In this document: positions 8,221 to 51,674 of the stretch, one piece after another
How the letters are laid out: the number at the start of each line of letters is the position of its first letter
Numbering within the stretch: position 1 is the first letter of the stretch
DNA from: Actinomycetota bacterium
Lineage (GTDB): Bacteria; Actinomycetota; UBA4738; HRBIN12
Assembly (NCBI GenBank): GCA_035490535.1
Contig: DATHCP010000010.1
Location: forward strand, 1,088 to 65,087
DNA: 64,000 nucleotides
Direction of reading: 5' to 3'
Program-made: the position numbers and the translations under genes
The notes under the pieces: model-generated
Database searches by the model: none
Seen by the model: the letters and a program-made list of their open reading frames with translations, nothing else
What the model was told of the DNA's origin: nothing

Positions 8221-8224
8221 GCGA

Positions 8225-9914: not shown

Positions 9915-11294
9915 TCAGCCGGCGACCGGTTCGAAACGCGAGAGCGAGAACGGGCCCATCGTGACGGCGTGCACGCGCCCGTCGGCGCCGCGATGGAAGA
10001 TGACGGGGTCGCCCGACTGGCGCATCCCCGGGTCGACCGTGAACCGGTCGGGCTCGCCCGTCGGCGTGAAGACCGCCTTCCAATCGGGGTCGTCGGGGTC
10101 GACCATCGTCAATCGGTTGTCGCGCCACTCGATCCGGACCAGGATGCCGTCCTCCGCGTCGCCGTAGAGGCCGAGGAGATCGGCGAAGGCCTCGGGGAGC
10201 GGCGTGGGTGGCGACATCGACGCGGCGGCCCTCGCCGCCTCGAGCGCGAGCTCGGCAAGGGCCATCGAGAGATCGGCCGGCGGCGCGACACCGTTCAGCA
10301 GCGCGATCGCGCCGACCTTCTCCGGCACGCGGTAGCACGCGTTCGTCGAGAACCCGGGCAGGCCGCCGGAGTGCATCAGCCACACGGTCTCGCCGCGGCG
10401 CCGGCCGTACCAGCCGATCCCGTAGGCCTCGGTCCACGCGTCGTCGCCCAGGTAGCGGGGCTGGTGCATCTCCCGCAGCGAGGCGCCGGCCAGGACCTGT
10501 GCTCCGCTCCGGTCGCCGCCGTCCTCGAGGAACTGCGCGACGATCCACCGCCCGACGTCGTCCACGCACGACCAGAGGCCACCCTCGGCGCTCGGGAACG
10601 TGCGCAGACGCCGCGCCGGCACGGGAACGTCGCTCATCCACCGTCCTCGGTAACCGACGGCCGCGCGGGCGGCGAGCGCGTCGGACAGGGGCGGGAACGC
10701 CGTCGAGGTCATGCCGAGCGGCTCCAGGATCTGCGTGCGGACGTGATCGACGTACGGCACGCCGGCGACGCGCGCGACGATCTCTCCCAGCAGCTGATAG
10801 CCGAGGTTCGAGTACTTCTGCTGGGCGTTCGGAGGCAGCCGCGTCGCGATCTCGTCGGCGCGCGCGAGGTTCACCGCCGGCGAGGACTCGTAGACGTCGC
10901 GGGTCCAGTCGGCGTCGGGCGGATCGCCCATCAGCCCCGACTCGTGCGACAGGAGCCGGCGGATCGTGACCGTCTCGATCAGCCCGAACGGGCTCGCGGC
11001 GCGCCGGAGTTCGGGCAGGTACGCGACGGCGGGATCGTCGAGGTGGAGCTTCCCCTCGTCGCGCAGCTGCATGATCGCCGTGGCCGTGAACGTCTTCGTG
11101 ATCGACGCGATCCGGTAGAGGGTGGTCGCATCGGGCGCGCGGCCGGCCTCGACGTCGGCGAGGCCCGCGCCGCCCGACCACACGAGCCCGTCGCCGTGGA
11201 CCACGCCGGCGACGGCGCCCGGGAGGCGATGTTCGCGGACGAACGCGGTCACGGTCTGTTGATACCGATCCGAGAGGCTTGCGACGGACGACAT
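9915..11294 (-). CDS. beta-lactamase-fold serine hydrolase (class C / esterase family)
   Basis: SITK (SxxK) motif in YRIASITKTFTATAIMQL; YxN-like SNLGYQLLG; start MSSVASLSDRY at 11294. Confidence 0.8.
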   Translation of the reverse strand: MSSVASLSDRYQQTVTAFVREHRLPGAVAGVVHGDGLVWSGGAGLADVEAGRAPDATTLYRIASITKTFTATAIMQLRDEGKLHLDDPAVAYLPELRRAASPFGLIETVTIRRLLSHESGLMGDPPDADWTRDVYESSPAVNLARADEIATRLPPNAQQKYSNLGYQLLGEIVARVAGVPYVDHVRTQILEPLGMTSTAFPPLSDALAARAAVGYRGRWMSDVPVPARRLRTFPSAEGGLWSCVDDVGRWIVAQFLEDGGDRSGAQVLAGASLREMHQPRYLGDDAWTEAYGIGWYGRRRGETVWLMHSGGLPGFSTNACYRVPEKVGAIALLNGVAPPADLSMALAELALEAARAAASMSPPTPLPEAFADLLGLYGDAEDGILVRIEWRDNRLTMVDPDDPDWKAVFTPTGEPDRFTVDPGMRQSGDPVIFHRGADGRVHAVTMGPFSLSRFEPVAG

Positions 11295-11338
11295 GACGGG
11301 CGCCAGCCTACGTGAGCCGACTAGGATTGCCGAACGCC

Positions 11339-14300
11339 ATGGCGTCCCTCGATCAGCGTGTCTGCTCCTCGTGCGGCGGCACGAACCCCCCGGATGCGAA
11401 GTTCTGCGCCCGGTGCGGCACCGGCCTCGCGGCCGTGTGCGGGAGCTGCGGTCACGGGAACCTCCCCGATGCGAGCTTCTGCACCGAGTGCGGCGGTCCG
11501 CTGGTGACGACGAGCGCCTCCGGATACGCATCCCCGCAGGCCTACACGCCCGCAGCCCTGGCCGAGAAGATCCGCCGGGGCGGCACCCAGCTGGAGGGAG
11601 AGCGGAAGCAGATCACCGTCCTGTTCGCCGATGTGATCGGCTCGACCGGGATCGCGGAGCGGCTGGACCCCGAGGACATGCGGACGATCCTCCACCGGTC
11701 GTTCGACGTGATGCTCGAGCAGATCCATCGCTACGAAGGCACGGTGTCCCAGTTCCTCGGAGACGGGTTGCTCGCGCTGTTCGGTGCCCCGATCGCCCAC
11801 GAAGATCACGCGCAGCGGGCCGCGCGCGCGGCGCTGGACATCCAGGCGGCCCTCGAGCCGATCCGCGAAGAGCTGCGGTCGGCCCGCGACCTCGACCTCC
11901 GTTTCCGGATCGGACTCCACAGCGGCCCCGTCGTCGTGGGCCACGTCGGCGTCGATCTTTCGATGGACTACCTGGCGGTCGGCGACACGATGAACATGGG
12001 CGCGAGGATCCAAGCCGCGGCACCGCCAGGATCGGTGGTGGTCAGCGAGGCGACGCGACAGCTGATCGAGGGCTACTTCGTCCTGCGCGACCTCGGTGAG
12101 CAGGAGTTGAAGGGCAAGGGGCGCCAGCACGTCTACGAGGTCGAACGCCCCAACCGGCTCCGCTCGCGGGTGGACATCGAGGCCGAACGGGGCCTCGGAC
12201 CGTTCGTCGGCCGCGCCCACGAGCTGACCTCGCTGCACGACGCCTTCGAACGGGCCCGCGGCGGCACGGGCCAGGTCGTCCTCGTCTCGGGAGAACCGGG
12301 GATCGGCAAGTCCCGACTGCTGCACGAGTTCCGGAGCGCGCATGCTGGCGCCGACGCTGCGTGGCGGGTGGGCCGATGCATCTCCTACGGGACCGACATC
12401 CCATACCTCCCGATCATCGACGTGCTCAAGGACGCGTACCGGATCGACGAGGCAGACGACGACGAAGCGGTCGCGCAGAAGGTGCGTGAAGGTGTGCGGC
12501 TATCCGGAGCGGACCCCGGCGTCGCTCCGCTGCTGGTCGATCTCCTCGACGCAGGTGACGGGGCGGCGCCGCAGATGGATCCGCAGTTCCGCAAGGCGCG
12601 GACGTTCGAGGCGCTCCGCACCGTGGCGCTCACGGCGGCCGCCCATCGGCCGCTCGTGCTCACGATCGAGGACGCTCACTGGATCGACCCGGCCTCGACC
12701 GAGTACCTCTCGTTCCTGATCGAGGCGATCCCGGATCATCGGATCCTGCTCCTGCTCTCGCACCGTCCCGGATGGCTGCAGCCGTTCGGCGACGCTCCCC
12801 ACCTGCAGACGATCGGCCTGCGGAGCCTCTCGAACGTCGAGACGGTCGAGGTCGCGAGCGCGGTCGTCGGCGCATCGCTCCCCACGGAGCTGGAGGATCT
12901 CGTGTTCCGCAAGGCGGACGGGAACCCCTTCTTCGTCGAGGAGGTGACGAAGTCCCTGATCGAGGCCGACGCGATCCGGCGCGACGGCGACGGGTACGTG
13001 CTGACGCGCCCGCTCGCGGACCTCGACGTCCCGGACACGGTGCAGGACGTGATCATGGCCCGGCTGGATCGGCTCCCCGACGAGCCCAAGCGCGCGCTGC
13101 AGACGGCATCGGTGATCGGGCGGGAGTTCACGCTGCGGCTGTGGGAGCGCAGCGCGGACATCTCCGCGTCCTCGGGGGACGTCCGCGAGCTGCGCTCCCT
13201 CGAGCTCATCTTCGAACGGTCGCTCTACCCCGAGCTCGTCTACATGTTCAAGCACGCGCTCACCCACGACGTCGCCTACCAGAGCCTCTTACTGGAGCGA
13301 CGGAGGATCCTGCACGGCGTCGTGGCCGACGCGATCGCCGAGCTGTATGCGGACCGGCTGGCGGAGCAGGTCGAGACGCTCGCGTACCACTACGAGCGGG
13401 CCGAGCGCTGGGACGAGGCGCTCGACCACCTGATCCTTTCCGGCGAGAAGGCGATGACGAACTTCATGCCGCACGAGGCCGTCGGCTTCTTCGAACGGGC
13501 CGACGCGATCGTGCAGGCGGGGCACGCTGAGGTCGACCCCCAACGCCTGATGACGATGTACCAGCAGCAGGGAGACGCCTACCTCGAGATGAGCGTATGG
13601 GATCGCAGCGCCGCCAGCTTCCAGGCGATGCGGGAGGTGGCGCAGCGGGAAGGGGACGCCGATCGGGAGGGATTCGCCTTCTACTCGGAGTCGTTCGCGC
13701 AGCTGTGGGGCCATCGGTTCGAGGAGGCGTTGACGCTGGCCGAGGCGGCGGAGCGATCCGTGGAAGGATCGGGGAACCCGGCCGTCCGAGCCGGGGCCGC
13801 CGTGATGATCGCGCTCGTCCGCGCCCTGACCGGCGAGTTGATCGAGGCGACCGGGTTCGCGGAGGACGCGAAACGTCTTGCCGACGACGCCGACGCCTCG
13901 TTCATCCGTGGGCTCGCGCGGTGCACGCTCGGCGAGCTCCTCCACTGGCGCGGACGCGAGGACGACGCGCTCGCGGCCGTCTCCGAAGCCCTCGAGCTGG
14001 GCCGAGCCGAGGAGATCCCGTACCTGCTCCTCTGGGGCGGCTGGGACGACGCGTTGATGCGGTGCGGATCGGGCGATTACGACGGATCCCTCGCGGCGCT
14101 CCGCGAGGTCCTGGCGCTGAGCAAGCAGCTGGGCGACCGGGCCCTCTGGTGTCGGACCCTGAACACGTTCGGCTGGGTGTACATCGACCTGTGCAACTGG
14201 GAGCTGGCGCTCGACCACAACGGCCGCGGCGCCGAGGCGTCGAGGGAGTTCGGCGACCCCGAGATCATCCGCAACGCCGAGCTCAATCTGGCCGATTGTC

Positions 14301-27119: not shown

Positions 27120-28502
27120 TTACCGGAGGGCGGTCGAGACCTCCGATCCCGAGCCGGAGGCAGCCGCCTGGGCCCACGCCTGGGCCCCGACCTGGAGAGG
27201 GTCCCATGGAGAGCTGAAGGGTGGCGTGTAGCTGAGATCCACGTCCGAGAGCTCCTCGACCCGCATCTCGCTGTAGAGGGCCGCGGCGGCGATGTCGATC
27301 CGCTTCGCGACCTGCCCGTTCCGGTGCCCGACGATCTGTGCCCCGAGCAAGCGACCGTCCCGTCGATCGCCGGTCGTCCTGACCGTCATCTTCGTGGCAC
27401 CGGGGTAGTAGACCTTGTGATCCCAGCCCTCGGTCTCGACCGTGAGCGGATCGTGGCCAGCCTCGGCAGCCTCGGCGGTCCGGAGGCCCGTCCGCGCGAC
27501 CGCCAGATCGAAGACCTTGACGACCTGCGTGCCAAGGCTGCCCGCGAACACCCGGTCACCCCCCACCGCGTTCTCGCCCGCGATCCGCCCCTGCTTGTGA
27601 GCGGTGGTCCCGAGCGGCATATAGGTCGGCCGCTGCAGCATGCGGTGCCACGTCTCGACGCAGTCCCCGGCGGCCAAGATGTTGGCGATGCCGGTCCGCA
27701 TCCCTCGGTCCACCACGATCGCGCCACGCACCCCGAGCTCGGCACCCGCGCTCGCCGCCAGCGCGGTGTCGGGTCGCACGCTGACCGCGATCAGCACGGC
27801 GTCCGCCGTCACGGCATCGAACCCGTCGCCGGCCACCTGGAGGGCCCGGCCCTCCTGCGTGATCCGGCGGACGGTCGCCGAGGTCCGCACCTCCACGCCG
27901 TGCGTCCGCAGCTCTCGCCCGACCAGCTCGCCCATCTCGGGATCGACCGTGGTCATCACGCTGGGGAGCTGCTCGAGGACGGTGACCGCCATCTCACGCT
28001 GCGACAACGCGTCCGCCATCTCGAGCCCGATGTAGCCCCCGCCAACGATCACCGCCGCCTCCGCGTCCGCCAACCGATCGTTCAAGGCGAACGTGTCGTC
28101 CATCGTGTGCAGGAGGTGGACGCCCTCGAGCTCGATCCCCGCGATGTCGGGACGGATCGGGACGGCGCCAGTGCCGATCACGAGCCGGTCGTACGGGACC
28201 ATCTCCGTGGTTCCCCGAGCATCCATGAGTTCGACCGTCCGCTCCGAAGGCTCGATCGCCGTCGCGCGGGTGTCGAGGAGCAGCTCGATCCCCGTCGCGT
28301 CGATCTCCTCCCGCGTGCGATGGGCCAGGTCGCGCCAGTCGGGTGTCTCCCCGCTGATGAAATACGGGATCCCGCAGATGCTGAAGTTCGGATAGCGGTC
28401 GGCGACGACCATCGTCACGTCGAAGGAGGGATCCAGCTCCCGCGCCCGCAGCGACGAGCTGATCCCCGCGTCGCTCCCACCGATCACCAGCAATCGCGGC
28501 AT
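27120..28502 (-). CDS. FAD-dependent pyridine nucleotide-disulfide oxidoreductase (CoA-disulfide reductase / NADH oxidase family)
   Basis: LVIGGSDAGISS FAD fold, single redox Cys in YPNFSICGIPYF, second Rossmann VIVGGGYIGLEMA. Confidence 0.7.
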   Translation of the reverse strand: MPRLLVIGGSDAGISSSLRARELDPSFDVTMVVADRYPNFSICGIPYFISGETPDWRDLAHRTREEIDATGIELLLDTRATAIEPSERTVELMDARGTTEMVPYDRLVIGTGAVPIRPDIAGIELEGVHLLHTMDDTFALNDRLADAEAAVIVGGGYIGLEMADALSQREMAVTVLEQLPSVMTTVDPEMGELVGRELRTHGVEVRTSATVRRITQEGRALQVAGDGFDAVTADAVLIAVSVRPDTALAASAGAELGVRGAIVVDRGMRTGIANILAAGDCVETWHRMLQRPTYMPLGTTAHKQGRIAGENAVGGDRVFAGSLGTQVVKVFDLAVARTGLRTAEAAEAGHDPLTVETEGWDHKVYYPGATKMTVRTTGDRRDGRLLGAQIVGHRNGQVAKRIDIAAAALYSEMRVEELSDVDLSYTPPFSSPWDPLQVGAQAWAQAAASGSGSEVSTALR

Positions 28503-29228
28503 CTAGCGGGTCCTCCTCGCCGACGTCCTCCCCTTGGGAGGTACCACCCGGTCACGCAACGTCGCGACGCGTGCGTCCAAGCGCGCAAGCGTTTCATCGA
28601 ACGCCATCTGGGTTCCGGCGTCGGCGGGGTCGGGCGTCGACCAGTGCAGGACGCGGGCACCGAAGATCGAGGCGCCGATCTCCTCGTGGGCGCGGTCGCA
28701 GACCGTTACCACCAGATCGGGCGTGCGTTTCACATCGCCGAGCGGCCGCGGGACGGCGCCCCCCAGACGCAGGCCCCAGCGACCGGCCGCGCGGACGGCG
28801 AGCAGGTGGACGCGGGCCTCGGGGTGGGTCCCGGCGCTCTCCGCCGGCACCTCGCTCGCCCGGTTCCACAGCGCCGCGGCCATCTGCGAACGCGCCGAGT
28901 TGCCCGTGCAGATGAACAACACCGCACCGGCCAGGATCGGGTCGGGCGAAGGCTCCGGTCCCAGCATCTGGGGGATCAGGCGCAGGTATCGGCGACGGCC
29001 GTCTCCTGCGGAGGGGATCCGTTCGACGAGACCGGCGCGCTCGAGGATCGCGACATGATGGGCGAACAGGTTCGATCGGATCCCGATGAGTTCTGCCAGC
29101 TCCGAGGGGGCGAAGTCCCCCGTCCCGAGCAGGTCGACGATGCGGAGGCGATGGGGATCGGCGAGGGCCGCGTGGACCTCGACCCGTCGGCCGAGTTCGA
29201 GGGAACCCGACCCTTGCTCAATAGTCAT
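28503..29228 (-). CDS. ArsR-family HTH fused to low-molecular-weight-phosphatase-type arsenate reductase (ArsR-ArsC fusion)
   Basis: N-terminal ALADPHRLRIVDLL...SNLFAHHVAILERAGLV (ArsR HTH); C-terminal LFICTGNSARSQMAAAL (CX5R P-loop) ... DLVVTVCD. Confidence 0.75.
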   Translation of the reverse strand: MTIEQGSGSLELGRRVEVHAALADPHRLRIVDLLGTGDFAPSELAELIGIRSNLFAHHVAILERAGLVERIPSAGDGRRRYLRLIPQMLGPEPSPDPILAGAVLFICTGNSARSQMAAALWNRASEVPAESAGTHPEARVHLLAVRAAGRWGLRLGGAVPRPLGDVKRTPDLVVTVCDRAHEEIGASIFGARVLHWSTPDPADAGTQMAFDETLARLDARVATLRDRVVPPKGRTSARRTR

Positions 29229-29286
29229 TGAGTCAAGACTAGTTGAGTATGTGGGCGCCGGTCAAGCCGTCCCCGAACGGGATCTT

Positions 29287-30027
29287 CTATGGCTTCCGGG
29301 CGCGCACGATCGCGCCGTACATGTCGTCTGCTTCTTCGTGGGTCGGACGGATCACGATGTCCTCGAAGCCCACCCGCTCCAGCCCGTCCTCGTACTCGGA
29401 GAACGACAGAGCGCCGGCGATGCACCCGACGTAACTCCCCCGGTCGGCCCGGTCCTGCGACGAGAGGCGGTCGTCCGCGACGACGTCACTGATGCCGATC
29501 CGACCGCCGGGACGGAGCACCCGGAACATCTCCGCGAGGACCTTCGGCTTGTCGGTGGACAGGTTGATCACGCAGTTCGAGATCACGACATCGACCGTCG
29601 CGTCATCGAGGGGGATGTCTTCGATGTACCCCTTCAGGAACTCGACGTTGGTCGCGCCCGCCTCCCGGGCGTTCGCCCGCGCTACCTCGAGCATCTCGTC
29701 GGTCATGTCCAGCCCGTAGACGTGGCCGCTCAGGCCGACCCGCTTCGCCGAGAGCAGCACGTCGATCCCGCCACCGGACCCGAGGTCGAGCACGGTCTCG
29801 CCCTCGTTGAGATCCGCCACGGCGATCGGGTTGCCGCATCCGAGGCTCGCTAGCACCGCCTCCTCGGGAAGGCTGCCGCGCTCGGCGTCGTCGTAGAAGC
29901 GAAGACCGAAACCATCGGCCGGCTCGCAACATCCGGCCTCGTTCCGATCGTCCGCGGCCTTGCCCTCGGCGACCGCCCGCGCTGCGGCCGCGTACCGGTC
30001 CCGGACCTGTTCCTGCAGATCGCTCAT
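29287..30027 (-). CDS. arsM: arsenite S-adenosylmethionine methyltransferase (ArsM-like)
   Basis: Conserved Cys pairs GCCEP, LASLGCGNP, VYGLDMTDEM, ISNCVINL; SAM fold VLDLGSGGG. Confidence 0.75.
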   Translation of the reverse strand: MSDLQEQVRDRYAAAARAVAEGKAADDRNEAGCCEPADGFGLRFYDDAERGSLPEEAVLASLGCGNPIAVADLNEGETVLDLGSGGGIDVLLSAKRVGLSGHVYGLDMTDEMLEVARANAREAGATNVEFLKGYIEDIPLDDATVDVVISNCVINLSTDKPKVLAEMFRVLRPGGRIGISDVVADDRLSSQDRADRGSYVGCIAGALSFSEYEDGLERVGFEDIVIRPTHEEADDMYGAIVRARKP

Positions 30028-30049
30028 CACTGCACTCCTCTCATGCATC

Positions 30050-30397
30050 TCATGCACCAAGCGGGACGGCCAGCGCCCCCCGCAGCAGCTCGATCGGCTC
30101 TGGTCGGACCCGGAAATACGCCCACCGACCCCGCTGCTCCCGTTCGAGGAGCCCGGCGTCGGTGAGGACCTTCAGGTGATGGCTGACGGTCGGCTGCGAG
30201 AGCCCGAGTGGCTCCGTCAGGTCACAGACGCACGCCTCGCCGTCCGCGTGGGCCGCGATCAGGCTCAGCAGCCGCAGCCGCGACGGATCGGCCAGGACCT
30301 GGAGCGCCCCGGCGAGGCGTTCGGCGGCCTCGTCGTCGAGCGGCTCGCGGAGCACCGGCGGGCAGCAGGTCTCGTCGATCACCTGGAGCAGCTTCAT
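30050..30397 (-). CDS. arsR: ArsR-family metalloregulator
   Basis: As(III)-binding-type motif EACVCDL (cf. ELCVCDL), HTH LSQPTVSHHLKVL; extra N-terminal DETCCPP. Confidence 0.8.
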   Translation of the reverse strand: MKLLQVIDETCCPPVLREPLDDEAAERLAGALQVLADPSRLRLLSLIAAHADGEACVCDLTEPLGLSQPTVSHHLKVLTDAGLLEREQRGRWAYFRVRPEPIELLRGALAVPLGA

Positions 30398-43081: not shown

Positions 43082-43846
43082 CTACTCCTCGTCCTTCGCG
43101 GCCGCCTTGCGGGCCGTCGTCTTCTTGGCGGTGGTCTTCTTCGCCGTCGGCTTCTTCGCTGCCGACTTCGCGGTCGTCGCCTTCGCGGTCGTCGCCTTCG
43201 CGGTGGTCTTGCGCGCGGCCGGCTTCTTGGCCGCGCTGGGCTTCTTCGCGGCCGTGGGCTTCTTCGCGGCGGTCTTCTTCGGTGCCGTCTCCGCGGCGGG
43301 CGCCTCCGGCTTCGGGGCCGGTTCCGCGGTGGGCCGCTTCGCCGCGGGCTTCGCCTTCGGCGGCGCGGTCGGGGTCGGGGCGGTGGAGGCCGGCAGGCCC
43401 GTCCAGGCGGGACGCTCCCCGACCGTCAGCGGCGTCGGCTTCTGGGCGGCGTGCGGGTGCTCGGGCCCGGCGACGATGTGGAGCTTCTTGATCATCTGGC
43501 GGCCGAGCCGGTTCTTCGGCAGCATGCCCCGCACGGCCTTCTCGACCGCAGCGATCGGGCGCGTGGCCATCAGGTCGCCGTACTTCACGCCGGTGATGCC
43601 GCCCGGGTGCCCGGAGTGGCGCCAGGCGATCTTGTCCTCGAGCTTCTTGCCCGTCAGCTCGACCTTGTCGGCGTTGACGACGATCACGTGGTCGCCGGTG
43701 TCCATGTGCGGCGCGAACATCGGCTTGTGCTTGCCCCGCAACAGGGTTGCGACCTCGGAGGCGAGCCGGCCCAGCACCTGGCCGCTGGCGTCGACGACGT
43801 ACCAGCGGCGTTCGATGTGCTCAGGCTTGGGCGAGTAGGTCTTCAT
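43082..43846 (-). CDS. rplM: 50S ribosomal protein L13 with ~110-aa Lys/Ala/Pro/Thr-rich C-terminal extension
   Basis: [30 protein letters not shown]... core, then [14 protein letters not shown]...[29 protein letters not shown]... tail. Confidence 0.9.
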
Positions 43847-43918: not shown

Positions 43919-44299
43919 TCAGCCGCCCTGCATCGCCTCCATGTTGGCGCGGATCACCTCGACCGTCCGCTCGATGTCCGCGGTGGGGCTGAACTGCACG
44001 ATCTCGGTGCCGGCCACCCACGTCGGCGTGTGGCCGGGCGCGATGTAGAAGGCGTCCCCCGCCCCGTAGACCTCTTCCCGGTCGCCGACATGCATCGTCA
44101 GGGAACCCTTGACGACGTAGCCCCAATGCGGGCTCTGGCACCGGTCGTCGGGCAGCCCCACGAGCAACGGGGCGAGATCGCCGTCCTGCACGAACGAAAG
44201 GAAGTCGACCTGGTAGCCGCCCAGGTCCTCGTGGCGGTTCTCGCCCATCGGCCCCATCTGCTCGACCGTGCTCGCGCTGTCCTTCGACGCCTTCGGCAT
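43919..44299 (-). CDS. cupin-domain protein
   Basis: HWGYVVKGSLTMHVGDREEVYGAGDAFYIAPGH cupin motifs. Confidence 0.5.
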   Translation of the reverse strand: MPKASKDSASTVEQMGPMGENRHEDLGGYQVDFLSFVQDGDLAPLLVGLPDDRCQSPHWGYVVKGSLTMHVGDREEVYGAGDAFYIAPGHTPTWVAGTEIVQFSPTADIERTVEVIRANMEAMQGG

Positions 44300-44450
44300 G
44301 CGGTTCTCCCCTCCTCGGATCCCGCCGCATCCTACGCCAGCCCCGGTGGAGGGTCGGCCCCTCGGAACCGGGCCGGTCGGCCCCCTCCCCCGGCCGGTGC
44401 GCGGCCCATGCTCGACCCAGGGAGCGACGACCGCTCGCGAGGAGGTGGGG

Positions 44451-44879
44451 ATGGTGGCCGAGCCGGCGACGATCACGCAGGAGGGGACCGTTTCCCTCGT
44501 GCTGTTCTCGGGGACCGACGACCGGCTCCACGCGGCATCGGTCCTGGCGGTCGGGGCCGCGGCGCTCGGACGGAAGGTGAACATCTTCCTGCAGTACTGG
44601 GCGCTCGACGCGTTCCGGGCCGACCGGATCTGGAAGGACCACGGCGTCTCGCCCGAGGCCGGGCCCGAGGGAGCCGCCGCGATGGCGGCGCACGACGGCC
44701 CGCACTGGAGCGAGCTGCTGGGCCAGGCCAAGGTGATCGGTGACGTGACGATCTACGCGTGCGCCGACTCGATGGCGATGTTCGGCATCACGTCGGACGA
44801 CCTCGATCCGGTCGTGGACGGCGTCTGGGGCGTGGCGGCGTTCTTCGCCGAGGTCGACGGCCCCGTGACGTTCATCTGA
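44451..44879 (+). CDS. DsrE/DsrF-like sulfur-relay family protein
   Basis: GAGGAGG RBS; VSLVLFSGTDDRLHAASVLAVGAAALG...IYACADSMAMFG (conserved Cys). Confidence 0.55.
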   Translation: MVAEPATITQEGTVSLVLFSGTDDRLHAASVLAVGAAALGRKVNIFLQYWALDAFRADRIWKDHGVSPEAGPEGAAAMAAHDGPHWSELLGQAKVIGDVTIYACADSMAMFGITSDDLDPVVDGVWGVAAFFAEVDGPVTFI

Positions 44880-44893
44880 GGAGGTCGAGCACG

Positions 44894-45127
44894 ATGGCGA
44901 CGAGCACGAAGGAGATCGATGCACGGGGGATGCCCTGCCCGGGACCCCTGATGAGCCTGATCGGTGAGATCCGGCAGGCACAGGTGGGCGACGTGATCGA
45001 GGTCCTGTCCAGCGACGAGGGCTCGACGGCCGACATCCCGGCGTGGGTCGCCAAGGCCGGCCACGAGCTCGTGGAGGTCGTCCCCGAGGACGGCTACGCG
45101 CGGTTCGTGGTCCGCAAGGCGCGGTGA
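44894..45127 (+). CDS. tusA: TusA-like sulfurtransferase
   Basis: IDARGMPCPGPL CPxP motif; 77 aa. Confidence 0.75.
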   Translation: MATSTKEIDARGMPCPGPLMSLIGEIRQAQVGDVIEVLSSDEGSTADIPAWVAKAGHELVEVVPEDGYARFVVRKAR

Positions 45128-45132
45128 TCGCG

Positions 45133-46299
45133 ATGCCGGCGCGGATCGTGGTGCTGGGCGGCGGCGTCGGCGGAACGCTCGTCGCCAACCTGCTGGACAA
45201 GCGTCTCGGGAAGGACGCGGCGATCACCGTGGTCGACCCGACGGGGATGCACGACTACCAGCCCGGATACCTGTACCTGGCGCTCGGACAGGCCAACGGC
45301 CACTGGCTCTCGCGCGACGAGCGCACGCTGCTGCGATCGGGCGTGGACCTGGCCGTGGAGGAGGCGGTCGCGATCCGTCCCGAGGAGGGGACGGTCCGGC
45401 TGCGACGGGGCGGAGCGCTCCCGTGGGACTTCCTGGTGATCGCGACCGGCGCGCGGCTGGTTGCCGACGAGATCCCGGGCTTCGCCGGCGCGTACGGCTT
45501 CTATTCGCTGGAGGACGCCGAGCGGCTCCGCGCGGCGCTGCGGCGCTTCGACGGCGGCCGCGTCGTGATCGGCGTGGCCGGCATCCCGTACAAGTGCCCG
45601 CCGGCGCCGGTCGAGTTCGCGATGCTCCTGGAGCAGCAGCTGCGCGACCGCGGGATCCGCGACCGGAGCGAGATCGTGCTCGCGTCCCCGTTGAACCGTG
45701 CGTTCACGATCGAGAGCGCGTCCTCCCTGATCCAGCCGATCATGAAGGAGCGCGACATCGCGCTGGAGACCTTCTTCAACGTGGAGTCGGTCGATCCCTC
45801 GGCCGGCACGGTCCATTCGCTGGAGGGCGAGGACCTGGCCTACGACCTGCTCGTGCTCGTGCCGCCGCACCGCGGCCAGCAGGTGATCAGCGACTCGAAC
45901 CTCGGCGACACGGGCGGCTGGATCCCGACGAACCGCGAGACCCTGAACGCCGGCGGCCACGAGCGGATCTTCGCGCTCGGCGACGCCACCGACCTTCCGA
46001 TCTCGAAGTCGGGATCGACCGCGCACTTCGAGGCGCCGGTGATCGCCAGCCGGATCGCCTCGCTGGTCCGGGGCACGGCGCCCGAGGAGAACTACGGCGG
46101 GCGGGTGATGTGCTTCCTGGAGACCGGCGGCGGGAAGGCGACGGTGCTGCGGTTCGACTACGAGCATCCGCCGGTCCCGCCCGAGCCGAACCGCGCGTGG
46201 CACATGGCGAAGTGGATCTTCAACCGGGCCTACTGGGAGACGGTGCCGCAGGGGCGGCTCCCCGACCGCGCGCCCGGCACGATGCCGAAGGGGGCGTGA
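45133..46299 (+). CDS. sqr: sulfide:quinone oxidoreductase-like flavoprotein
   Basis: IVVLGGGVGG FAD motif; GIPYKCPPAPVEF redox Cys; second Cys GRVMCFLETGGG. Confidence 0.65.
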   Translation: MPARIVVLGGGVGGTLVANLLDKRLGKDAAITVVDPTGMHDYQPGYLYLALGQANGHWLSRDERTLLRSGVDLAVEEAVAIRPEEGTVRLRRGGALPWDFLVIATGARLVADEIPGFAGAYGFYSLEDAERLRAALRRFDGGRVVIGVAGIPYKCPPAPVEFAMLLEQQLRDRGIRDRSEIVLASPLNRAFTIESASSLIQPIMKERDIALETFFNVESVDPSAGTVHSLEGEDLAYDLLVLVPPHRGQQVISDSNLGDTGGWIPTNRETLNAGGHERIFALGDATDLPISKSGSTAHFEAPVIASRIASLVRGTAPEENYGGRVMCFLETGGGKATVLRFDYEHPPVPPEPNRAWHMAKWIFNRAYWETVPQGRLPDRAPGTMPKGA

Positions 46300-46300
46300 G

Positions 46301-46534
46301 ATGGAGACGACGATCGATCGGACGCTCGACGCGAAGGGCCTGTCCTGCCCGATGCCGATCGCGAAGACCGCGATCGCGATGCGGCAGCTCGCTCCGGGCG
46401 AGGTGCTGGAGCTGCTGGCCACCGATCCGGGGTCGGTGCCGGACGTGACGGCCTGGTGCGGGAGCACCGGGAACGAACTGCTCGAGCAGACCGAGGACGC
46501 GGGCGTGTTCCGCTTCCTGATCCGGAAGGCGTGA
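46301..46534 (+). CDS. tusA: TusA-like sulfurtransferase (second copy)
   Basis: LDAKGLSCPMPI CPxP motif; 77 aa. Confidence 0.75.
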   Translation: METTIDRTLDAKGLSCPMPIAKTAIAMRQLAPGEVLELLATDPGSVPDVTAWCGSTGNELLEQTEDAGVFRFLIRKA

Positions 46535-46539
46535 GGACG

Positions 46540-47115
46540 ATGACGACCGGCACGACCGAGACGACGGAACCGACCGTGGACGTGGAGGCGGCGATCGAGG
46601 AGCTGCGCGCCGAGATCGCGGCCCACGAACGCGGCAGCGCGACCCACACGAAGATGGTGATCTTCGCCTGGAGCGGCGACCTGGACCGGATCTGGCCGAC
46701 GTTCATCCTGGCGACGACCGCCGCCGCGATGGGCATGGCCACCACGGTGTTCTTCACGTTCTGGGGGCTCTTCCCGCTGGTGAAGAACGACGTGCGGATC
46801 ACCGGCGAGAACTGGATGCAGCGGATGATGTCGGCGATGAACCGGGGCGGCACCGAGCACCTCGGATTGTCGAAGATGAACTTCGCGGGCATGGGGCCGG
46901 CGATGATGAAGAAGCTCGCCGAAGAGCACCACGTGGCCTCGCCGCAGGAGCTGCTCGAGGTCGCGCGCGACCTCGGGGTCGAGCTGATCCCGTGCCAGAT
47001 GACGATGGACCTGCTGGGCCTGACGACCGATGACCTGATCGACGGCCTCGCCGAGCCGGCCGGCGCCGCGACCGCCCTGGCCGAGGCGCAGGACGCGCTG
47101 ACGCTGTTCATCTGA
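46540..47115 (+). CDS. DsrE/DsrF-like family protein (second copy, divergent)
   Basis: KMVIFAWSGDLDRIWPTFILATTAAAMG...ELIPCQMTMDLLGL. Confidence 0.45.
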   Translation: MTTGTTETTEPTVDVEAAIEELRAEIAAHERGSATHTKMVIFAWSGDLDRIWPTFILATTAAAMGMATTVFFTFWGLFPLVKNDVRITGENWMQRMMSAMNRGGTEHLGLSKMNFAGMGPAMMKKLAEEHHVASPQELLEVARDLGVELIPCQMTMDLLGLTTDDLIDGLAEPAGAATALAEAQDALTLFI

Positions 47116-47221
47116 GGTTCGGAGCTGCCCCCACGGACAGGTACGCCCTGCCCGCGGGGGCAGGCGACGCTCGCCCCTGGGTGCCTTGCGACCGAGGCGG
47201 GCGAACTCGCATCATCGACGC

Positions 47222-49225
47222 ATGCGACGCACCCGCACCGCGGCGGCGATCCTCGGCCCGATCCTCGTCGCCTCGATCGTGCTCGGCCCCGTGCCCGGCC
47301 GTTCGGCCACCGCGACCGGCTGGAGCATCGTGGCGGGGCCGAACACGTTCGGGCAGTGGGTGTTCCAGGACGTGGCGGCCGTCGGAGCGAGCGACGTCTG
47401 GGCCGTCGGCGTCCGCGGCGGGAACACCGGGACCCTCGCCGAGCACTGGGACGGCTCGTCGTGGACGGTCTCCTCGACGCTCGACCCCGACGCGCTCGGC
47501 GACCGGCTGCACGGCGTGGCGGCGGCCGACGCGACCCACGTCTGGGCGGTCGGCGTCGGGCTCACGATGTCCGGCGGCGTTCCCCTGATCGAGCGATGGA
47601 ACGGGACGGATTGGAGCCAGGACGCGGCGCCCGGCGACGGAACGCTCTGGGGCGTGGGCGCCCTGTCCGCGACCGACGCCTGGGCGGTCGGCTCGACCAT
47701 GGCGGGGACCACGCTGATCGAGCGCTGGAACGGCAGTTCGTGGAGCATCGTTCCGAGCGCCGATCCCTCGACGAACGACATCCTGTACGCCGTCGCCCCG
47801 ATCTCGGGGACCGACGTGTGGGCGGTCGGGCGCTCCGACGCGGGCACGCTCCTGGAGCACTGGAACGGCTCGGCGTGGACCGCGAGCACGGTCGGCGGCG
47901 GATCCCTCACCGGGATCGCGGCGTTCGCGACCGATGACGTGTGGGCGGTGGGCCACGGCCTGGCGACCCACTGGGACGGCTCGACCTGGACCGCCGCCAG
48001 CCTGCCCGTGCCGGCGGACGGCACCGTCGATCTGGCCGGCGTCGCAGGATCGGGCCCGCACGACGTCTGGGCGGTCGGCGCCTCCGGTGCCGAGACCCTG
48101 ATCGAGCACTGGGACGGCGCGGACTGGTCGGTCGTGCCGAGCCCGAACCCGACGTCGCCCCCACCGAACGGCGGAGCGTCCTTCACGGGGGTGGCCTCGG
48201 TCTCCGCGACAGACGCGTGGGCCGTGGGCACCGATCCCTGGAGCGAGAACACGCTCGCCGCGCGCTTCGCGGAGGGCGACTTCACCTCCGCGCTCTCGGC
48301 GGCGGGCCCGCTGTCGGTGTACGTCGGCGACGCCTCGAACGTCGTGGCCAACCTGGCGTTCTCGAGCAACGCGTCGGCCGCCGGTGAGACCGTCCACCGC
48401 TCGCGCCACGATCCGAACGGGACGGTGGAGGACCTGGGCGACGCGGTCACGGACGCGTACGGGCACGTGGCGTTCGGTGACGTCGTCGGCGCCAAGGGCA
48501 CGTACACGTACACCGCGACGTTCGACGGCCAAGGGATCTTCCCGGGGTCGACCGACTCGGTCCAGCTGACCGTGACCGGCCGACCGACCTCGGTGTCGCT
48601 CTCGTCCGGTCGGGGCCGGATCGTGGTCGGGGGCTCGGTGGTGTTCGCCGCCGACCTGAACGGTCCGCCGCCCGGCGCGCCGGTCGCGCTGTTCCGGAAG
48701 ATCTTCGGCCACGGCTGGGCGAAGATCGCGACCGGATCGGCCGGTGCCGGCGGGGCGGTCGCCTTCCGGCTGCGCCCGACGTTGAGCGCGATCTACCAGG
48801 CTCGGTTCGCGGGCGACGCCACCTATGCGGCCTCGAGCAGCGGCACGGTCCACGTCGAGGTCGCGGCGATCGTGCGGATCACCGCGCTCGGCGGCTACGC
48901 GACGAAGGCCGGGGTCCGGCGCTACCACTTCTCCGAAGCGTGCGTGCGCACGCACCGGCAGGACTGCCCCGTGTTCCTGGTGAGCGTGACGCCGAAGCGA
49001 CCGCACGCGGCGGTGACGATCCAACTGTGGGCCTTCGAGCGCAACGCCTGGCGCCCGGTGGGCACCACCACGCCCCACCTGGACGGAACGGGACAGGCGC
49101 TGGTCGCCTTCTTCTACCGCGACGGCTCGGTGATGGGGCTGCCCCTGCGGATCGGCGCCGAGGTGGGCGACAACCTCAGCGGCGACGCGATCTCGCCGTT
49201 CGCGCGGTTCATGATCACGCGCTGA
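47222..49225 (+). CDS. secreted repeat-propeller protein (paralog C) with C-terminal Ig-like region
   Basis: Signal peptide; TLAEHWDGSSWTV...LIERWNGTDWSQ...LIERWNGSSWSIVPS...LLEHWNGSAWTA...LIEHWDGADWSVVPSPNP repeats with ..DVWAVG; then ~300 aa beta-rich region. Confidence 0.7.
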   Translation: MRRTRTAAAILGPILVASIVLGPVPGRSATATGWSIVAGPNTFGQWVFQDVAAVGASDVWAVGVRGGNTGTLAEHWDGSSWTVSSTLDPDALGDRLHGVAAADATHVWAVGVGLTMSGGVPLIERWNGTDWSQDAAPGDGTLWGVGALSATDAWAVGSTMAGTTLIERWNGSSWSIVPSADPSTNDILYAVAPISGTDVWAVGRSDAGTLLEHWNGSAWTASTVGGGSLTGIAAFATDDVWAVGHGLATHWDGSTWTAASLPVPADGTVDLAGVAGSGPHDVWAVGASGAETLIEHWDGADWSVVPSPNPTSPPPNGGASFTGVASVSATDAWAVGTDPWSENTLAARFAEGDFTSALSAAGPLSVYVGDASNVVANLAFSSNASAAGETVHRSRHDPNGTVEDLGDAVTDAYGHVAFGDVVGAKGTYTYTATFDGQGIFPGSTDSVQLTVTGRPTSVSLSSGRGRIVVGGSVVFAADLNGPPPGAPVALFRKIFGHGWAKIATGSAGAGGAVAFRLRPTLSAIYQARFAGDATYAASSSGTVHVEVAAIVRITALGGYATKAGVRRYHFSEACVRTHRQDCPVFLVSVTPKRPHAAVTIQLWAFERNAWRPVGTTTPHLDGTGQALVAFFYRDGSVMGLPLRIGAEVGDNLSGDAISPFARFMITR

Positions 49226-50090
49226 GATCGCGCGCGATCGCGGCGAAGGCCTCCCCCGCTGGCGAGAGCGGGCCGGCGCGACGGACCAGACCCACGGTGC
49301 GTTCCGGCGACGGCGCGAGCCGCAGCACGACCGCGCCGGCAGCGGCGGCCTCGGCCGCGAGCGGCTCCGGCAGCAAGGCCGCGCCGGCGCCGGCGAGGAC
49401 GAGCGGGAGGATCGCCTCCCGCTGACCGGTCTCGACCGCGATCCGCAGGGACCGGCCGCTCGGCCTCACCGCGCGCTCGGCGATCCGGCGGGTGGAGCTG
49501 CCGGCCGGCGTGGTGATCAGGTCGACGTCGCCGAGGTCGGCCGGCGGCAGCGGGCGCCGTCGCCGCGGGGTCCCCGGCGGGAAGACCGCCACGATCCGCT
49601 GCACGAACAGCACCTCCTCGAACAGCTCCCCATGCCCCGACGGGAGCTCGAGCAGGCCGAGCTCGACGCGGCCGGTGACGATCGCGTCCACCGCATCGCG
49701 ATCGTCGTCGGGCTCGAGCACTTCCACCCGCACCGCGGGGTGGGCTCGACGGAACGCCCCGACGAGCCGTGGGAGCGGCTCGCTCGCGAGCGTCGGCAGC
49801 GAGACCAGATCGAGCCTCCCCGCCAGCAGACCCACGACGGCGCCGGCGGCCGTCCGGGCGGCGTCGACCTCGCGGAGGGCGCGCCGAGCCGGCTCGAGCA
49901 CGGCCTCCCCGGCCGCGGAGAGCACCACCCCGCGGCCCACGCGGTGGAACAGCCGCACACCCAGCTCCCGCTCGAGCGCGCCGATCCCCTGCGAGACCGA
50001 CGGCTGCGACACGTACAAGACCTCCGCGGCCGCCGTGAAGCTGCCGGTCTCGGCGACCGTGAGCACGTAGCGCAGCTGGCGAAGCTCCAT
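49215..50090 (-). CDS. LysR-family transcriptional regulator
   Basis: MELRQLRYVLTVAETGSFTAAAEVLYVSQPSVSQGIGALERELGVRLF. Confidence 0.85.
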   Translation of the reverse strand: MELRQLRYVLTVAETGSFTAAAEVLYVSQPSVSQGIGALERELGVRLFHRVGRGVVLSAAGEAVLEPARRALREVDAARTAAGAVVGLLAGRLDLVSLPTLASEPLPRLVGAFRRAHPAVRVEVLEPDDDRDAVDAIVTGRVELGLLELPSGHGELFEEVLFVQRIVAVFPPGTPRRRRPLPPADLGDVDLITTPAGSSTRRIAERAVRPSGRSLRIAVETGQREAILPLVLAGAGAALLPEPLAAEAAAAGAVVLRLAPSPERTVGLVRRAGPLSPAGEAFAAIARDLSA

Positions 50091-50124: not shown

Positions 50125-50160
50125 TTGGACATATGCACGGTTCCGCCGTGTCCTGGAGGT

Positions 50161-50907
50161 ATGGCGTGGATCGCGATCGTCGGGATCGGACTCGGGGTCG
50201 GGTTCCTCGCGGGGTTGTTCGGCAAGGGCGGGTCGGCGGTCGCGACGCCCTTGCTCGCGGCGGCCGGCGTCCCGCCGCTCGTGGCCCTCACCGCTCCCCT
50301 TCCGGCGGCGATCCCGACCTCCCTCGCCGGCGAGCTCGCCTACCGCGGGAGCGGCGGGCCGGACCGGCGCGTGCTCCTGTGGTCGGCGGCGTTCGGCGTC
50401 CCGGCCACGATCGCCGGCGCGCTGGCGTCGCGTCTGGTCGGCGGCACGATCCTGCTGCGCGCCACGGATCTGCTGATCTTCGCGCTCGGCCTGCGGCTGA
50501 CGCTCCGCCGCAGGACCGACGTCCCGGTGGTGCCGATGCCGCGACACCCCACCTCGCGGCTGGCGTTCGTGGCGACCGGCGTCGGGCTCGTCTCGGGGCT
50601 GCTGGCGAACAGCGGCGGCTTCCTGCTCGCACCGCTGTACGTGATCGCGCTTCGGATGCCGATCAAGCGTGCGTTCGCGACATCCCTCGCCGTGGCCGCG
50701 ATCCTCGCGGTTCCGGGCACGCTCGCGCACTGGGAGCTGGGCCACCTCGACTGGACGGTCGTGGCGGTCTTCGCGGCGGCATCGGTTCCCACCGCGTTCG
50801 TCGGGGCCCGGGTCGCGGTCCGCACGAGCGCCCCGCGGCTCGAACGGATCTACGGCGCGGCGCTGGTGCTGCTCGGGCCGGTGTTCCTGGCGCTCAGCTT
50901 CCGCTGA
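50161..50907 (+). CDS. TauE/SafE (DUF81) family sulfite/anion exporter
   Basis: 8-TM protein with duplicated G-rich motifs GLFGKGGSAV / LANSGGFLLAPL. Confidence 0.7.
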   Translation: MAWIAIVGIGLGVGFLAGLFGKGGSAVATPLLAAAGVPPLVALTAPLPAAIPTSLAGELAYRGSGGPDRRVLLWSAAFGVPATIAGALASRLVGGTILLRATDLLIFALGLRLTLRRRTDVPVVPMPRHPTSRLAFVATGVGLVSGLLANSGGFLLAPLYVIALRMPIKRAFATSLAVAAILAVPGTLAHWELGHLDWTVVAVFAAASVPTAFVGARVAVRTSAPRLERIYGAALVLLGPVFLALSFR

Positions 50908-51674
50908 GGCCGCCGCCCGTAGCGGACGTGCTCGAGCGTCAGCCCGTGCGGCGGCGCGATCGGCGGCGCGCCCGATCGGTCCCGGGCCCGAAGGATCCGC
51001 GCGACGTCGCCGGGATCGAGCTTCCCGTCCCCGACCGCCACGAGGGTTCCCACGAGCGCCCGCACCATCTGGTGCAGGAACGCGTCGGCCGCGAACCGAA
51101 GCTCGAGGAGGTCGCCCGAGCGCCGCACCGAGATCCTCCGGAGCTCCCGCACGGTGGAACGGCCCGGACCCGGGTGCCGGCAGAAGGATGTGAAGTCGTG
51201 CTCGCCGACGAGCGTGCGGGCCGCCGCGCGCATCGGCCCCAGCGCCGGCGCGCCGGGCCGGTGCCACGTGAACCGTGCGGTGAACGGGTCCGGCAGCGGC
51301 GCGACGCCGATCGCGTACCGGTACGCGCGCTCGATCGCCCACCGCCGCGCGTCGAACCCGTCGGGGGCCACCGTCGCGCGGCGGATCACGACCTCGGGCG
51401 CGAGCGCGCCGTTCAGCGCCGCGGCGATCCGCTCCGGCGCCAGCCCGGAGCCGGTGACGAACGACGTCACCTGGCCGGCCGCGTGGACGCCGGCGTCGGT
51501 GCGGCCGGCGACCACGAGCCGGACCTCCTGGCGGAGGATCCGCTCCAGGGCGCCGGTCAGCTCACCCTGGACCGTGCGGATCGCGGGATCGCGCTGCGCG
51601 GCCCAGCCGCGGAAACCGGTGCCGTCGTAGGCGAGGTCGAGCCGGATCGTGCGCGGGGTGGAGCCGGAGCTCAC
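50850..51674 (-). CDS. truA: tRNA pseudouridine(38-40) synthase
   Basis: [18 protein letters not shown]...GRTDAGVHA catalytic Asp loop; GTG start in GTGA overlap with rplQ stop; 3' end overlaps tauE convergently. Confidence 0.85.

Follow-up and report, generated by a model that had tools for sequence, protein, structure and literature searches.

A conserved five-gene operon for a type III SQR-like flavoprotein, two TusA proteins, and two DsrE2-type proteins in uncultured Actinomycetota, with a probable role in sulfide oxidation or detoxification

The DNA analyzed here is a stretch of 64,000 nucleotides (referred to as the window, with positions counted from its first letter) of contig DATHCP010000010.1, which belongs to a high-GC metagenome-assembled genome (MAG) labelled Actinomycetota (GenBank assembly GCA_035490535.1). 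Five co-oriented genes on its plus strand encode a flavoprotein similar to sulfide:quinone oxidoreductases (SQRs), with one TusA-family and one DsrE-family protein on either side. The carriers of the left half are referred to as DsrE_a and TusA_a and those of the right half as TusA_b and DsrE_b:

44451-44879, plus strand: DsrE_a, 142 amino acids (aa), a DsrE2-type (PF13686) sulfur-carrier candidate with the active-site Cys104 in YACADS.
44894-45127, plus strand: TusA_a, 77 aa, with Cys15 in MPCPGP; starts 14 nt past the DsrE_a stop codon.
45133-46299, plus strand: type III SQR-like flavoprotein, 388 aa; starts 5 nt past the TusA_a stop codon.
46301-46534, plus strand: TusA_b, 77 aa, with Cys16 in LSCPMP; starts 1 nt past the SQR stop codon.
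46540-47115, plus strand: DsrE_b, 191 aa, PF13686, with Cys152 in IPCQMTMD; starts 5 nt past the TusA_b stop codon.

An independent gene call, available for a copy of this contig in ENA, predicts the identical five genes. A purine-rich Shine-Dalgarno (SD) sequence precedes all five start codons (GAGGAGGTGGGG ahead of DsrE_a and GAGGAGG ahead of TusA_a). The tight packing of these genes, their SD sequences, and the motifs CPxP in the TusA proteins, YACADS in DsrE_a, and KCPPAP in the flavoprotein had been pointed out in a first-pass annotation of this DNA, and all of them are indeed present, with gaps of 14, 5, 1, and 5 nt between the genes and with CPxP in the forms CPGP and CPMP. The module proper begins at 44451; position 43919, which had been given as its start, is the stop of the adjacent cupin gene. 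The description of the genes as a sulfur-relay operon around an SQR-type flavoprotein was borne out by searches of Pfam, NCBIfam, and solved structures, which upheld the family assignments of all five products. No signal peptide or transmembrane segment was evident by eye in any of the five proteins, and therefore the system is most likely cytoplasm-facing.

The flavoprotein matches the Pfam domains Pyr_redox_2 (E = 8e-16) and FCSD_central and carries the FAD-binding motif VLGGGVGG at its N terminus (residues 7 to 14). The NCBIfam model NF049943, which represents the selenoprotein subtype of type III SQRs, recognizes it with 349 bits (E = 4e-104; model positions 2 to 386 of 406), a score below the 525-bit cutoff, which is tuned to that subtype. 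This is far above the scores with solved relatives, which are 139 bits for type II SQR, 85 for flavocytochrome c sulfide dehydrogenase (FCSD), 71 for type I, and 69 for type V. The top solved sequence relative in phmmer searches is human SQOR (E = 2e-39, 23 to 24% identity), followed by FCSD and the SQRs of types I and V. The protein has two cysteines only, Cys155 in KCPPAP and Cys327 in VMCFLETG, and these align with SQOR residues Cys201 and Cys379, respectively; they are retained in 48 and 47 of the 49 orthologs. Both cysteines, as well as Phe328 and Phe363, are invariant across 43 diverse relatives. Phe328, directly after the second Cys, and Phe363, in the C-terminal helix, lie where a pair of Phe residues at the quinone site has been described in the SQRs of A. 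ferrooxidans and Caldivirga maquilingensis (PMC9666304), the latter being a type III enzyme. An AlphaFold (AF2) model built from the alignment of 43 relatives (pLDDT 91.8) shares its fold and both catalytic Cys residues with human SQOR (PDB 6OI5), with a Foldseek TM score of 0.90, as compared with 0.83 to 0.85 for type I SQRs; the PDB contains no type III SQR structure. The flavoprotein is shorter than SQOR and has just one C-terminal helix, an aromatic-rich segment predicted at residues 354 to 373, which is the sole candidate for a membrane anchor.

These comparisons leave little room for the flavoprotein being something other than an SQR, such as a type II NADH dehydrogenase (NDH-2), a coenzyme A (CoA)-disulfide reductase (CoADR), or a persulfide reductase that uses NAD(P)H to reduce carrier-bound sulfur. 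All these enzymes share the fold with two dinucleotide-binding domains, and NCBIfam does report a weak CoA-disulfide reductase match, at 36 bits versus a cutoff of 579. However, SQR and FCSD structures outrank those of NDH-2 and CoADR in sequence searches (E values of 2e-39 versus weak matches near 1e-5) and in structural comparison (TM scores of 0.90 versus 0.62 to 0.76, with NDH-2 at 0.74 to 0.76). Furthermore, the N-terminal Cys of the CoADR type is absent, and the position of the second nucleotide-binding motif, as read from the sequence, is occupied by the SQR-type GIPYKCPPAP. A reductive role of this kind is accordingly very improbable. The protein is SQR-like and not NDH-2-like, so that the first of the two results named in the first-pass annotation as refuting its reading was not obtained. 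A link to selenium metabolism was also considered and rejected: the NCBIfam matches of the encoded proteins to YedF, the selenocysteine (Sec)-associated LysR, and TIGR03169 are all far under the respective cutoffs.

The four carriers have equally recognizable families. TusA_a and TusA_b score 83.8 and 89.8 bits, respectively, with the TusA profile PF01206 (cutoff, 28.6 bits), and both stay under the NCBIfam equivalog cutoffs for the E. coli-type TusA, YedF, and YeeD. Judged by these profiles, they are members of the TusA family and not orthologs of any of those three proteins. Cys15 is kept in all 49 TusA_a orthologs and Cys16 in 45 of the 46 TusA_b orthologs. Both DsrE proteins match the DrsE_2 family (PF13686; cutoff, 25 bits), DsrE_a with 53.5 bits and DsrE_b with 160.3 bits. 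The closest structure in either case is 2QS7, the DsrE2B protein of S. solfataricus, which aligns from end to end with the active-site Cys residues matched (E = 5e-21 for DsrE_a and 3e-17 for DsrE_b); DsrE_b, which is distinguished by an insert rich in Met and by a variable extension at its N terminus, also matches 3PNX (E = 1.5e-15). With NF047629, the NCBIfam equivalog model for DsrE2, the two proteins score 20 and 89 bits, under its 210-bit cutoff, and on this basis neither should be named an NF047629-type DsrE2 ortholog. The lack of a conserved active-site Cys in the DsrE-like proteins had been listed as the other potential refutation; the residue is in fact retained in 45 of 46 DsrE_a orthologs (Cys104) and in 44 of 44 DsrE_b orthologs (Cys152).

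A scan of species-representative genomes yielded 49 loci related to this one, nearly all of them in MAGs of uncultured Actinomycetes. The order DsrE_a-TusA_a-SQR-TusA_b-DsrE_b is found in 41 of these loci, and the remainder are mostly cut by contig ends. Metagenomes contributed 80 further loci, including 57 that are complete in the same mirror order, 21 truncated ones, and two variants. In the protein database, the SQR has more than 5,300 relatives at E ≤ 1e-20, the best 120 of which are at least 74% identical to it. A metagenome scan that used a divergent alignment, as well as a search for DsrE_a homologs, returned only close relatives, which adds to the abundance of the cassette and not to its diversity. 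The five-gene arrangement is far beyond chance, and a large and very abundant uncultured clade of soil and sediment Actinomycetota has the mirror order by default. The first-pass annotation had proposed a search for this arrangement in other genomes and considered the mirror-symmetric layout unusual; it is instead the standard order in that clade, and other lineages permute the same five genes.

Indeed, more distant relatives of the SQR (39 to 57% identity) come with orthologs of these four carriers in different arrangements, seen in a separate bacterial lineage, several MAGs, metagenome contigs, and Heimdallarchaeota. At least six alternative orders were found:

Locus L041: DsrE_b-TusA_b-DsrE_a-TusA_a-SQR.
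Loci L046 and L131 to L134 (Heimdallarchaeota/Kariarchaeaceae): TusA_b-DsrE_b-DsrE_a-TusA_a-SQR.
Locus L139: DsrE_a-TusA_b-DsrE_b-TusA_a-SQR.
Locus L142: TusA_a-SQR-TusA_b-DsrE_b-DsrE_a.
Locus L140: two divergent units, TusA_b-DsrE_b and DsrE_a-TusA_a-SQR.
Loci L137/L138, L141, and L120: the three-gene form DsrE_a-TusA_a-SQR.

All catalytic cysteines are retained in these distant versions. Only two adjacencies hold everywhere: in every locus examined, whatever the gene order, the TusA_a gene directly precedes that of the SQR, and TusA_b adjoins DsrE_b in all gene orders seen. At the distant loci, TusA_a shows the highest conservation of the five, the median identity being 58% for TusA_a, 44% for the SQR, 43% for TusA_b, 38% for DsrE_b, and 35% for DsrE_a. 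The complete five-gene set is present in Asgard MAGs named Heimdallarchaeota or Kariarchaeaceae. Genes for small GTPases of the Arf/Ras family lie close to two of the related loci (L133, 8023-8613; L134, 3702-4292), and because of these neighbors both loci are suggested to be Asgard as well. The surroundings of the three-gene variants differ from those of the five-gene cassettes and include a divergent ArsR/HTH_5 regulator (the family of the persulfide sensors SqrR and BigR), a transporter of the Na/sulfate symporter family, a DoxD-like gene, and cupredoxins (L141, 3838-4251 and 6221-7798; L137, 7623-8300).

The flanks of these loci, fetched for 5 to 10 kb on each side (less at contig ends), are not conserved. 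The commonest site among the relatives is between a gene for a D-aminoacylase-like protein and one for a GAF-PAS histidine kinase, in the radA-carD-ispDF...acs neighborhood; these neighbors were named by eye from translations, Pfam having confirmed only the GAF/PAS kinase and an amidohydrolase, in locus L135. As the cassette stays intact amid unconserved flanks, it moves as an intact unit, and as such it is conserved across phyla and domains. The same data bear on the idea that the operon serves biosynthetic sulfur mobilization, turning sulfide into a TusA persulfide for tRNA thiolation, molybdenum cofactor synthesis, or Fe-S assembly. E. coli TusA does serve tRNA thiolation and molybdenum cofactor synthesis (PMC4175335, PMC13192261), and in most relatives the cassette is found among housekeeping genes. 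However, those surroundings reflect lineage synteny and are lost in other lineages, the genes tusBCDE, mnmA, moaD, and isc are unlinked to the cassette in every context examined, and a homologous gene set of Methylacidiphilum responds to sulfide exposure (PMC10205796; see below). A biosynthetic role is consequently quite improbable.

The mirror symmetry of the cassette had been taken for a duplication, a reading that is not supported. The two TusA proteins share 39% identity, DsrE_a and DsrE_b can be aligned over only ∼39 residues around the active-site Cys, and each carrier type has its own strongly conserved signature and is represented by separate orthologs across other phyla and archaea. 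An origin by recent duplication or as an inverted repeat was rejected on these grounds. Two apparent gene fusions were likewise discarded as Rosetta-stone evidence. In locus L046, an open reading frame (ORF) runs from TusA_a into the SQR (7177-8613), but in its sister contig, L131, which is 99% identical, a stop codon lies 1 nt before the SQR ATG. The SQR-TusA_b ORF of locus L003 (7674-9407) resembles the outcome of a one-base homopolymer deletion; the MAG in question presumably comes from a long-read assembly. None of 120 relatives has a TusA_a-SQR fusion, and both cases are most likely sequencing or assembly artefacts.

Taken as a whole, the operon probably encodes a self-contained cytoplasmic system for sulfide oxidation or detoxification, in which the sulfur produced by the SQR is handed to TusA_a and then to further protein carriers. 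The type III SQR-like flavoprotein would oxidize H2S at the Cys155/Cys327 redox pair and deliver two electrons, via FAD, to the quinones of the membrane; that sulfide is the substrate and a quinone the acceptor is suggested by homology to characterized SQRs and by the conserved quinone-site Phe residues. The sulfane sulfur would stay bound to the enzyme as a persulfide or trisulfide and, rather than leaving as polysulfide or on a small thiol, could be taken over by Cys15 of TusA_a. It may then travel onward as persulfide on successive proteins, DsrE_a and the TusA_b/DsrE_b pair, toward final sinks encoded elsewhere, such as oxidation to sulfite or storage and buffering. A specific physical partnership between the SQR and TusA_a is proposed because TusA_a is always encoded directly upstream and is more conserved than the SQR itself. 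In its strictest form, this would be a dedicated protein-only channel for sulfane sulfur, in which the SQR never frees the sulfur but loads it on TusA_a, with DsrE_a and a TusA_b/DsrE_b pair that is not interchangeable with TusA_a routing it onward. This form is put forward only tentatively and is, on balance, doubtful.

The chief competing explanation is that the SQR does free polysulfide or a small-thiol persulfide, such as mycothiol persulfide, and that the four carriers scavenge or buffer this product downstream. Such behavior would be the usual one, given that polysulfide release or the use of small acceptors is established for SQRs of types I and II. The product of AaSQR has been described (PMC8551704) and can be cited in favor of polysulfide release, and rhodaneses in sqr-pdo operons are reported to act on cellular sulfane sulfur (PMC9163753). 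The failure to find a robust TusA-SQR fusion is also in line with downstream scavenging. What speaks against it is the position of TusA_a directly upstream of the SQR in all gene orders seen, together with a conservation of TusA_a above that of the SQR. Scavenging is unlikely on this evidence; the reductase/NDH-2 and biosynthetic explanations discussed above and a thiosulfonate relay, considered below, are still less likely.

Several observations weigh against the preferred reading of the operon. There is no Rosetta-stone support for the TusA-SQR partnership. The TusA_b/DsrE_b pair is absent from some lineages (L137, L141, and L120) and is not essential to the core reaction. The lone C-terminal helix of the SQR (residues 354 to 373), the candidate site of membrane binding, is of moderate amphipathicity, with a hydrophobic moment (muH) of 0.35 to 0.44. 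Genes for a persulfide dioxygenase (PDO), a rhodanese, sHdr proteins, or sulfite-oxidizing enzymes were seen in none of the annotated contexts. Induction of the Methylacidiphilum genes described below is merely ∼1.7-fold (PMC10205796), and the DsrE2B protein of Metallosphaera cuprina, the only one of its kind assayed in vitro, neither reacted with any of six sulfur compounds nor received sulfur from TusA (PMC4175335).

Part of this gene set has been reported before. In Methylacidiphilum fumariolicum SolV, the genes MFUM_v2_0219-0221 encode an SQR of type III along with TusA and DsrE2 proteins (Schmitz et al. 2023, PMC10205796), similarly to the right half of the cassette, SQR-TusA_b-DsrE_b. 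These genes are upregulated in sulfide-adapted cells, and their SQR has been proposed to be the sulfide oxidizer (PMC10205796). The locus was reported with three genes; neither a second TusA upstream of the SQR nor a second DsrE was described, and the carriers were not studied in that paper. In the full-text literature, which was covered incompletely, no description of the five-gene set, of its permutations, or of the invariant TusA_a-SQR pairing was found.

The cst and yrk systems of Firmicutes, which use a type II SQR, also combine an SQR with TusA and DsrE-type carriers (YrkE is PF13686-like) and, in addition, a TauE-family exporter. They are exemplified by cstR-cstA-cstB-sqr of S. aureus, in which CstA is a fusion of rhodanese, TusA, and DsrE-like domains, and by the yrkD-yrkE-yrkF-yrkH-yrkI-yrkJ...sqr-pdo cluster of B. 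licheniformis (PMC9918477), and they protect the cells against sulfide and sulfane sulfur (PMC9918477). These clusters always come with a rhodanese, a PDO, and a repressor of the CstR type, whereas the module has none of the three: no genes for rhodanese (PF00581), metallo-beta-lactamase/PDO, or CsoR-like proteins were found around it or in the Pfam-annotated related contexts. On the other hand, the module has two distinct TusA proteins and two distinct DsrE2-type proteins, unlike the cst and yrk clusters. The resemblance to cst-like and DsrE/TusA systems that the first-pass annotation had noticed is apt, but the module is not a cst-type operon, for lack of rhodanese, PDO, and CstR.

A relay of persulfide from TusA to DsrE-family proteins is established in Allochromatium vinosum, in which Rhd_2599, TusA, and DsrE2A lead to DsrEFH, DsrC, and rDsrAB (PMC11094781). 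As in the module, this relay is cytoplasmic, and tusA and dsrE2 are adjacent; in contrast to the module, its donor is a rhodanese, it feeds rDsrAB, and DsrE2A has been proposed to act as a membrane anchor (PMC11094781). The module includes no dsr genes, both its DsrE2-type proteins appear by eye to be soluble, and the donor is presumably the SQR. No linkage to hdr-like genes and lbpA or to dsrAB, dsrC, and dsrEFH was detected within the fetched flanks of any locus. The sHdr-linked DsrE3/TusA relays and that of A. vinosum provide precedents for the transfer chemistry but differ from the module in genetic context.

In their 2014 study, Liu et al. designated as DsrE4 the DsrE homolog that is encoded downstream of an SQR, with Mcup_1724 of Metallosphaera cuprina as the prototype (PMC4175335). 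DsrE_b occupies the same context, a likeness of gene position alone. M. cuprina also has a dsrE3A-dsrE2B-tusA cluster (PMC4175335), and both DsrE proteins of the module are closest to the DsrE2B structure 2QS7. A TusA-SQR pairing was not described in M. cuprina, and its relay, which has a link to Hdr-like genes, transports thiosulfonate. Because TusA and DsrE3A of M. cuprina carry a Cys-S-thiosulfonate and not a persulfide (PMC4175335), the module could conceivably be a thiosulfonate relay for thiosulfate or tetrathionate, with the flavoprotein oxidizing thiosulfate or carrier-bound sulfur. The DoxD-like and Na/sulfate symporter-family genes near the three-gene variant L141 would fit such a relay, as would the TauE gene within 2 to 4 kb of the cassette in the window and its two closest relatives. 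However, both DsrE proteins are DsrE2B-like, with a single conserved Cys and without the Cys-X7-Cys of DsrE3A, and M. cuprina DsrE2B did not accept thiosulfonate (PMC4175335). Moreover, no hdr, lbpA, or dld genes are found nearby, and both Cys residues of sulfide-oxidizing SQRs are retained. These findings make a thiosulfonate relay improbable.

Putative control elements are found on both sides of the operon:

44352-44361 and 44375-44384, plus strand: two direct copies of GGTCGGCCCC in the cupin/DsrE_a intergenic region, a candidate operator or activator site.
44407-44413, plus strand: CATGCTC, a candidate -10-like promoter element, 44 nt before the DsrE_a ATG.
47125-47163, plus strand: GC-rich hairpin with 17-nt arms and a 5-nt loop, beginning 10 nt past the DsrE_b stop codon.

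Apart from these two copies, GGTCGGCCCC does not occur on the plus strand of the 64-kb window. The leader (44335-44450 in the window) was compared among 94 cassettes with usable upstream sequence. Related GGTCCC direct repeats, two or three in number, are found ∼100 nt upstream of DsrE_a in 32 of the 94, and [CG]ATGCT is seen at -45 to -50 in 25 to 28, including cassettes at other chromosomal sites. GCCCC(C) is present near -70 of DsrE_a in 40 loci. In 25 loci, GGGGTAC is seen twice, at -27 and at -10, the latter copy being the SD sequence, against a background of 0.09 per kb; the window instead contains GGTCGGCCCC twice plus CATGCTC. Such elements are kept by position in a subset of cassettes, e.g., L005, L018, L021, L023, L026, L037, and L062. 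A scan of the module upstream region with the sigma-70 consensus found no promoter. From their placement, the GGTCGGCCCC repeats can be considered candidates for a regulatory role and CATGCTC a candidate for a promoter role. A riboswitch or other known RNA in the leader was considered and rejected, as there is no Rfam match at E ≤ 1. At the other end, the hairpin is formed by the inverted repeat CTGCCCCCACGGACAGG / CCTGCCCGCGGGGGCAG, with arms that are 88% complementary. It has no T-tail, which is why it was not listed by the consensus terminator scan, and is the probable terminator of the operon.

The neighborhood of the operon in the window consists of the following genes:

43082-43846, minus strand: rplM, at the left flank of the block.
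43919-44299, minus strand: cupin gene, divergent (head-to-head) from DsrE_a, with a 151-nt intergenic region between them.
49215-50090, minus strand: LysR-type regulator, 2.1 kb to the right of the module.
50125-50907, plus strand: TauE, to the right of the LysR gene.
50850-51674, minus strand: truA, at the right flank of the block.

The whole block is bracketed by rplM/rpsI and truA/rplQ, which agrees with its placement between truA and rplM in the first-pass annotation. The cupin gene had been described there as convergent with the module; it is on the minus strand and is divergent from DsrE_a. A terminator-like hairpin separates it from rplM. The LysR and TauE genes do lie ∼2 kb to the right, as had been stated, and are separated from the module by the gene for an apparently secreted 679-aa repeat protein; as conserved neighbors they failed, being linked to the cassette in few related loci. 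An ortholog of the LysR gene lies 4 kb away from the cassette in just two other loci. A TauE gene lies within 2 to 4 kb of the cassette only in the window and in L002 and L003, its closest relatives (41% identity); these are also the only loci located near truA/rplM. The cupin gene is found in the window only. These three genes were consequently rejected as parts of the system. The rplM-truA position was rejected as meaningful too: the cassette of most relatives is at a different chromosomal site. The rplM-truA gap, which the first-pass annotation held to be normally closed in actinobacterial genomes, is variable in the phylum.

Several features of the surrounding DNA deserve a mention of their own. 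The apparently secreted 679-aa protein (47186-49225, plus strand) contains many WAVG-type, propeller-like repeats and a weak match to the Ig-like domain Big_3_5 but was assigned to no family; a 52%-identical homolog is encoded near the cassette in L003. In the same locus, a second SQR-like gene (10545-11747, minus strand) comes right after the cassette, on the other strand; its product is 27% identical to the cassette SQR and contains GAACFGAAYEF, a motif like that of type I. Next come hemerythrin-like, isoprenylcysteine methyltransferase-like, and TauE genes, all three in common with L002; all of these genes were named by eye from translations, except for TauE, which was recognized by tblastn with the TauE of the window. 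The rplM product of the window, ribosomal protein L13, is 254 aa long, with a C-terminal tail of ∼110 residues that is rich in Lys, Ala, Pro, and Thr, has AKKPTAAKK-type repeats, and resembles histone-like tails. As called, the TauE gene (plus strand) and truA (minus strand) converge and share 58 nt at their 3' ends (50850-50907), on which the independent gene call agrees. Finally, a cluster resembling arsenic resistance genes (27120-30397, minus strand) is located between glmM and the pst genes. Named by eye, it comprises genes for an ArsR-like regulator (30050-30397), a SAM-methyltransferase-like protein (29287-29856), an ArsC/low-molecular-weight phosphatase-like protein (28503-28967), and a CoA-disulfide-reductase-like flavoprotein (27120-28502).

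The module extends the known systems that combine an SQR with sulfur carriers and does not represent a new principle; its subset SQR-TusA-DsrE2 has already been published (PMC10205796). Type III SQRs are the least understood class of these enzymes (PMC10205796), and in one sediment metagenome survey they were the most numerous, with 1,814 of 2,593 SQRs (PMC12345210). Similarly, DsrE2B-type proteins are without a demonstrated activity (PMC4175335). The compact and widespread set of five proteins described here, with its clear partner pairs TusA_a/SQR and TusA_b/DsrE_b, offers a way to address both the sulfur acceptor of type III SQRs and the role of the DsrE2B-type proteins. Should the protein-only channel prove to be true, TusA_a would be the physiological acceptor that has long been missing for type III SQRs, and DsrE2B-type proteins would gain their first function, in a relay conserved from soil Actinomycetota to Heimdallarchaeota. 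The finding also suggests that the canonical route of rhodanese and persulfide dioxygenase is dispensed with in the sulfide metabolism of abundant uncultured Actinomycetota of soil and of some Asgard archaea.

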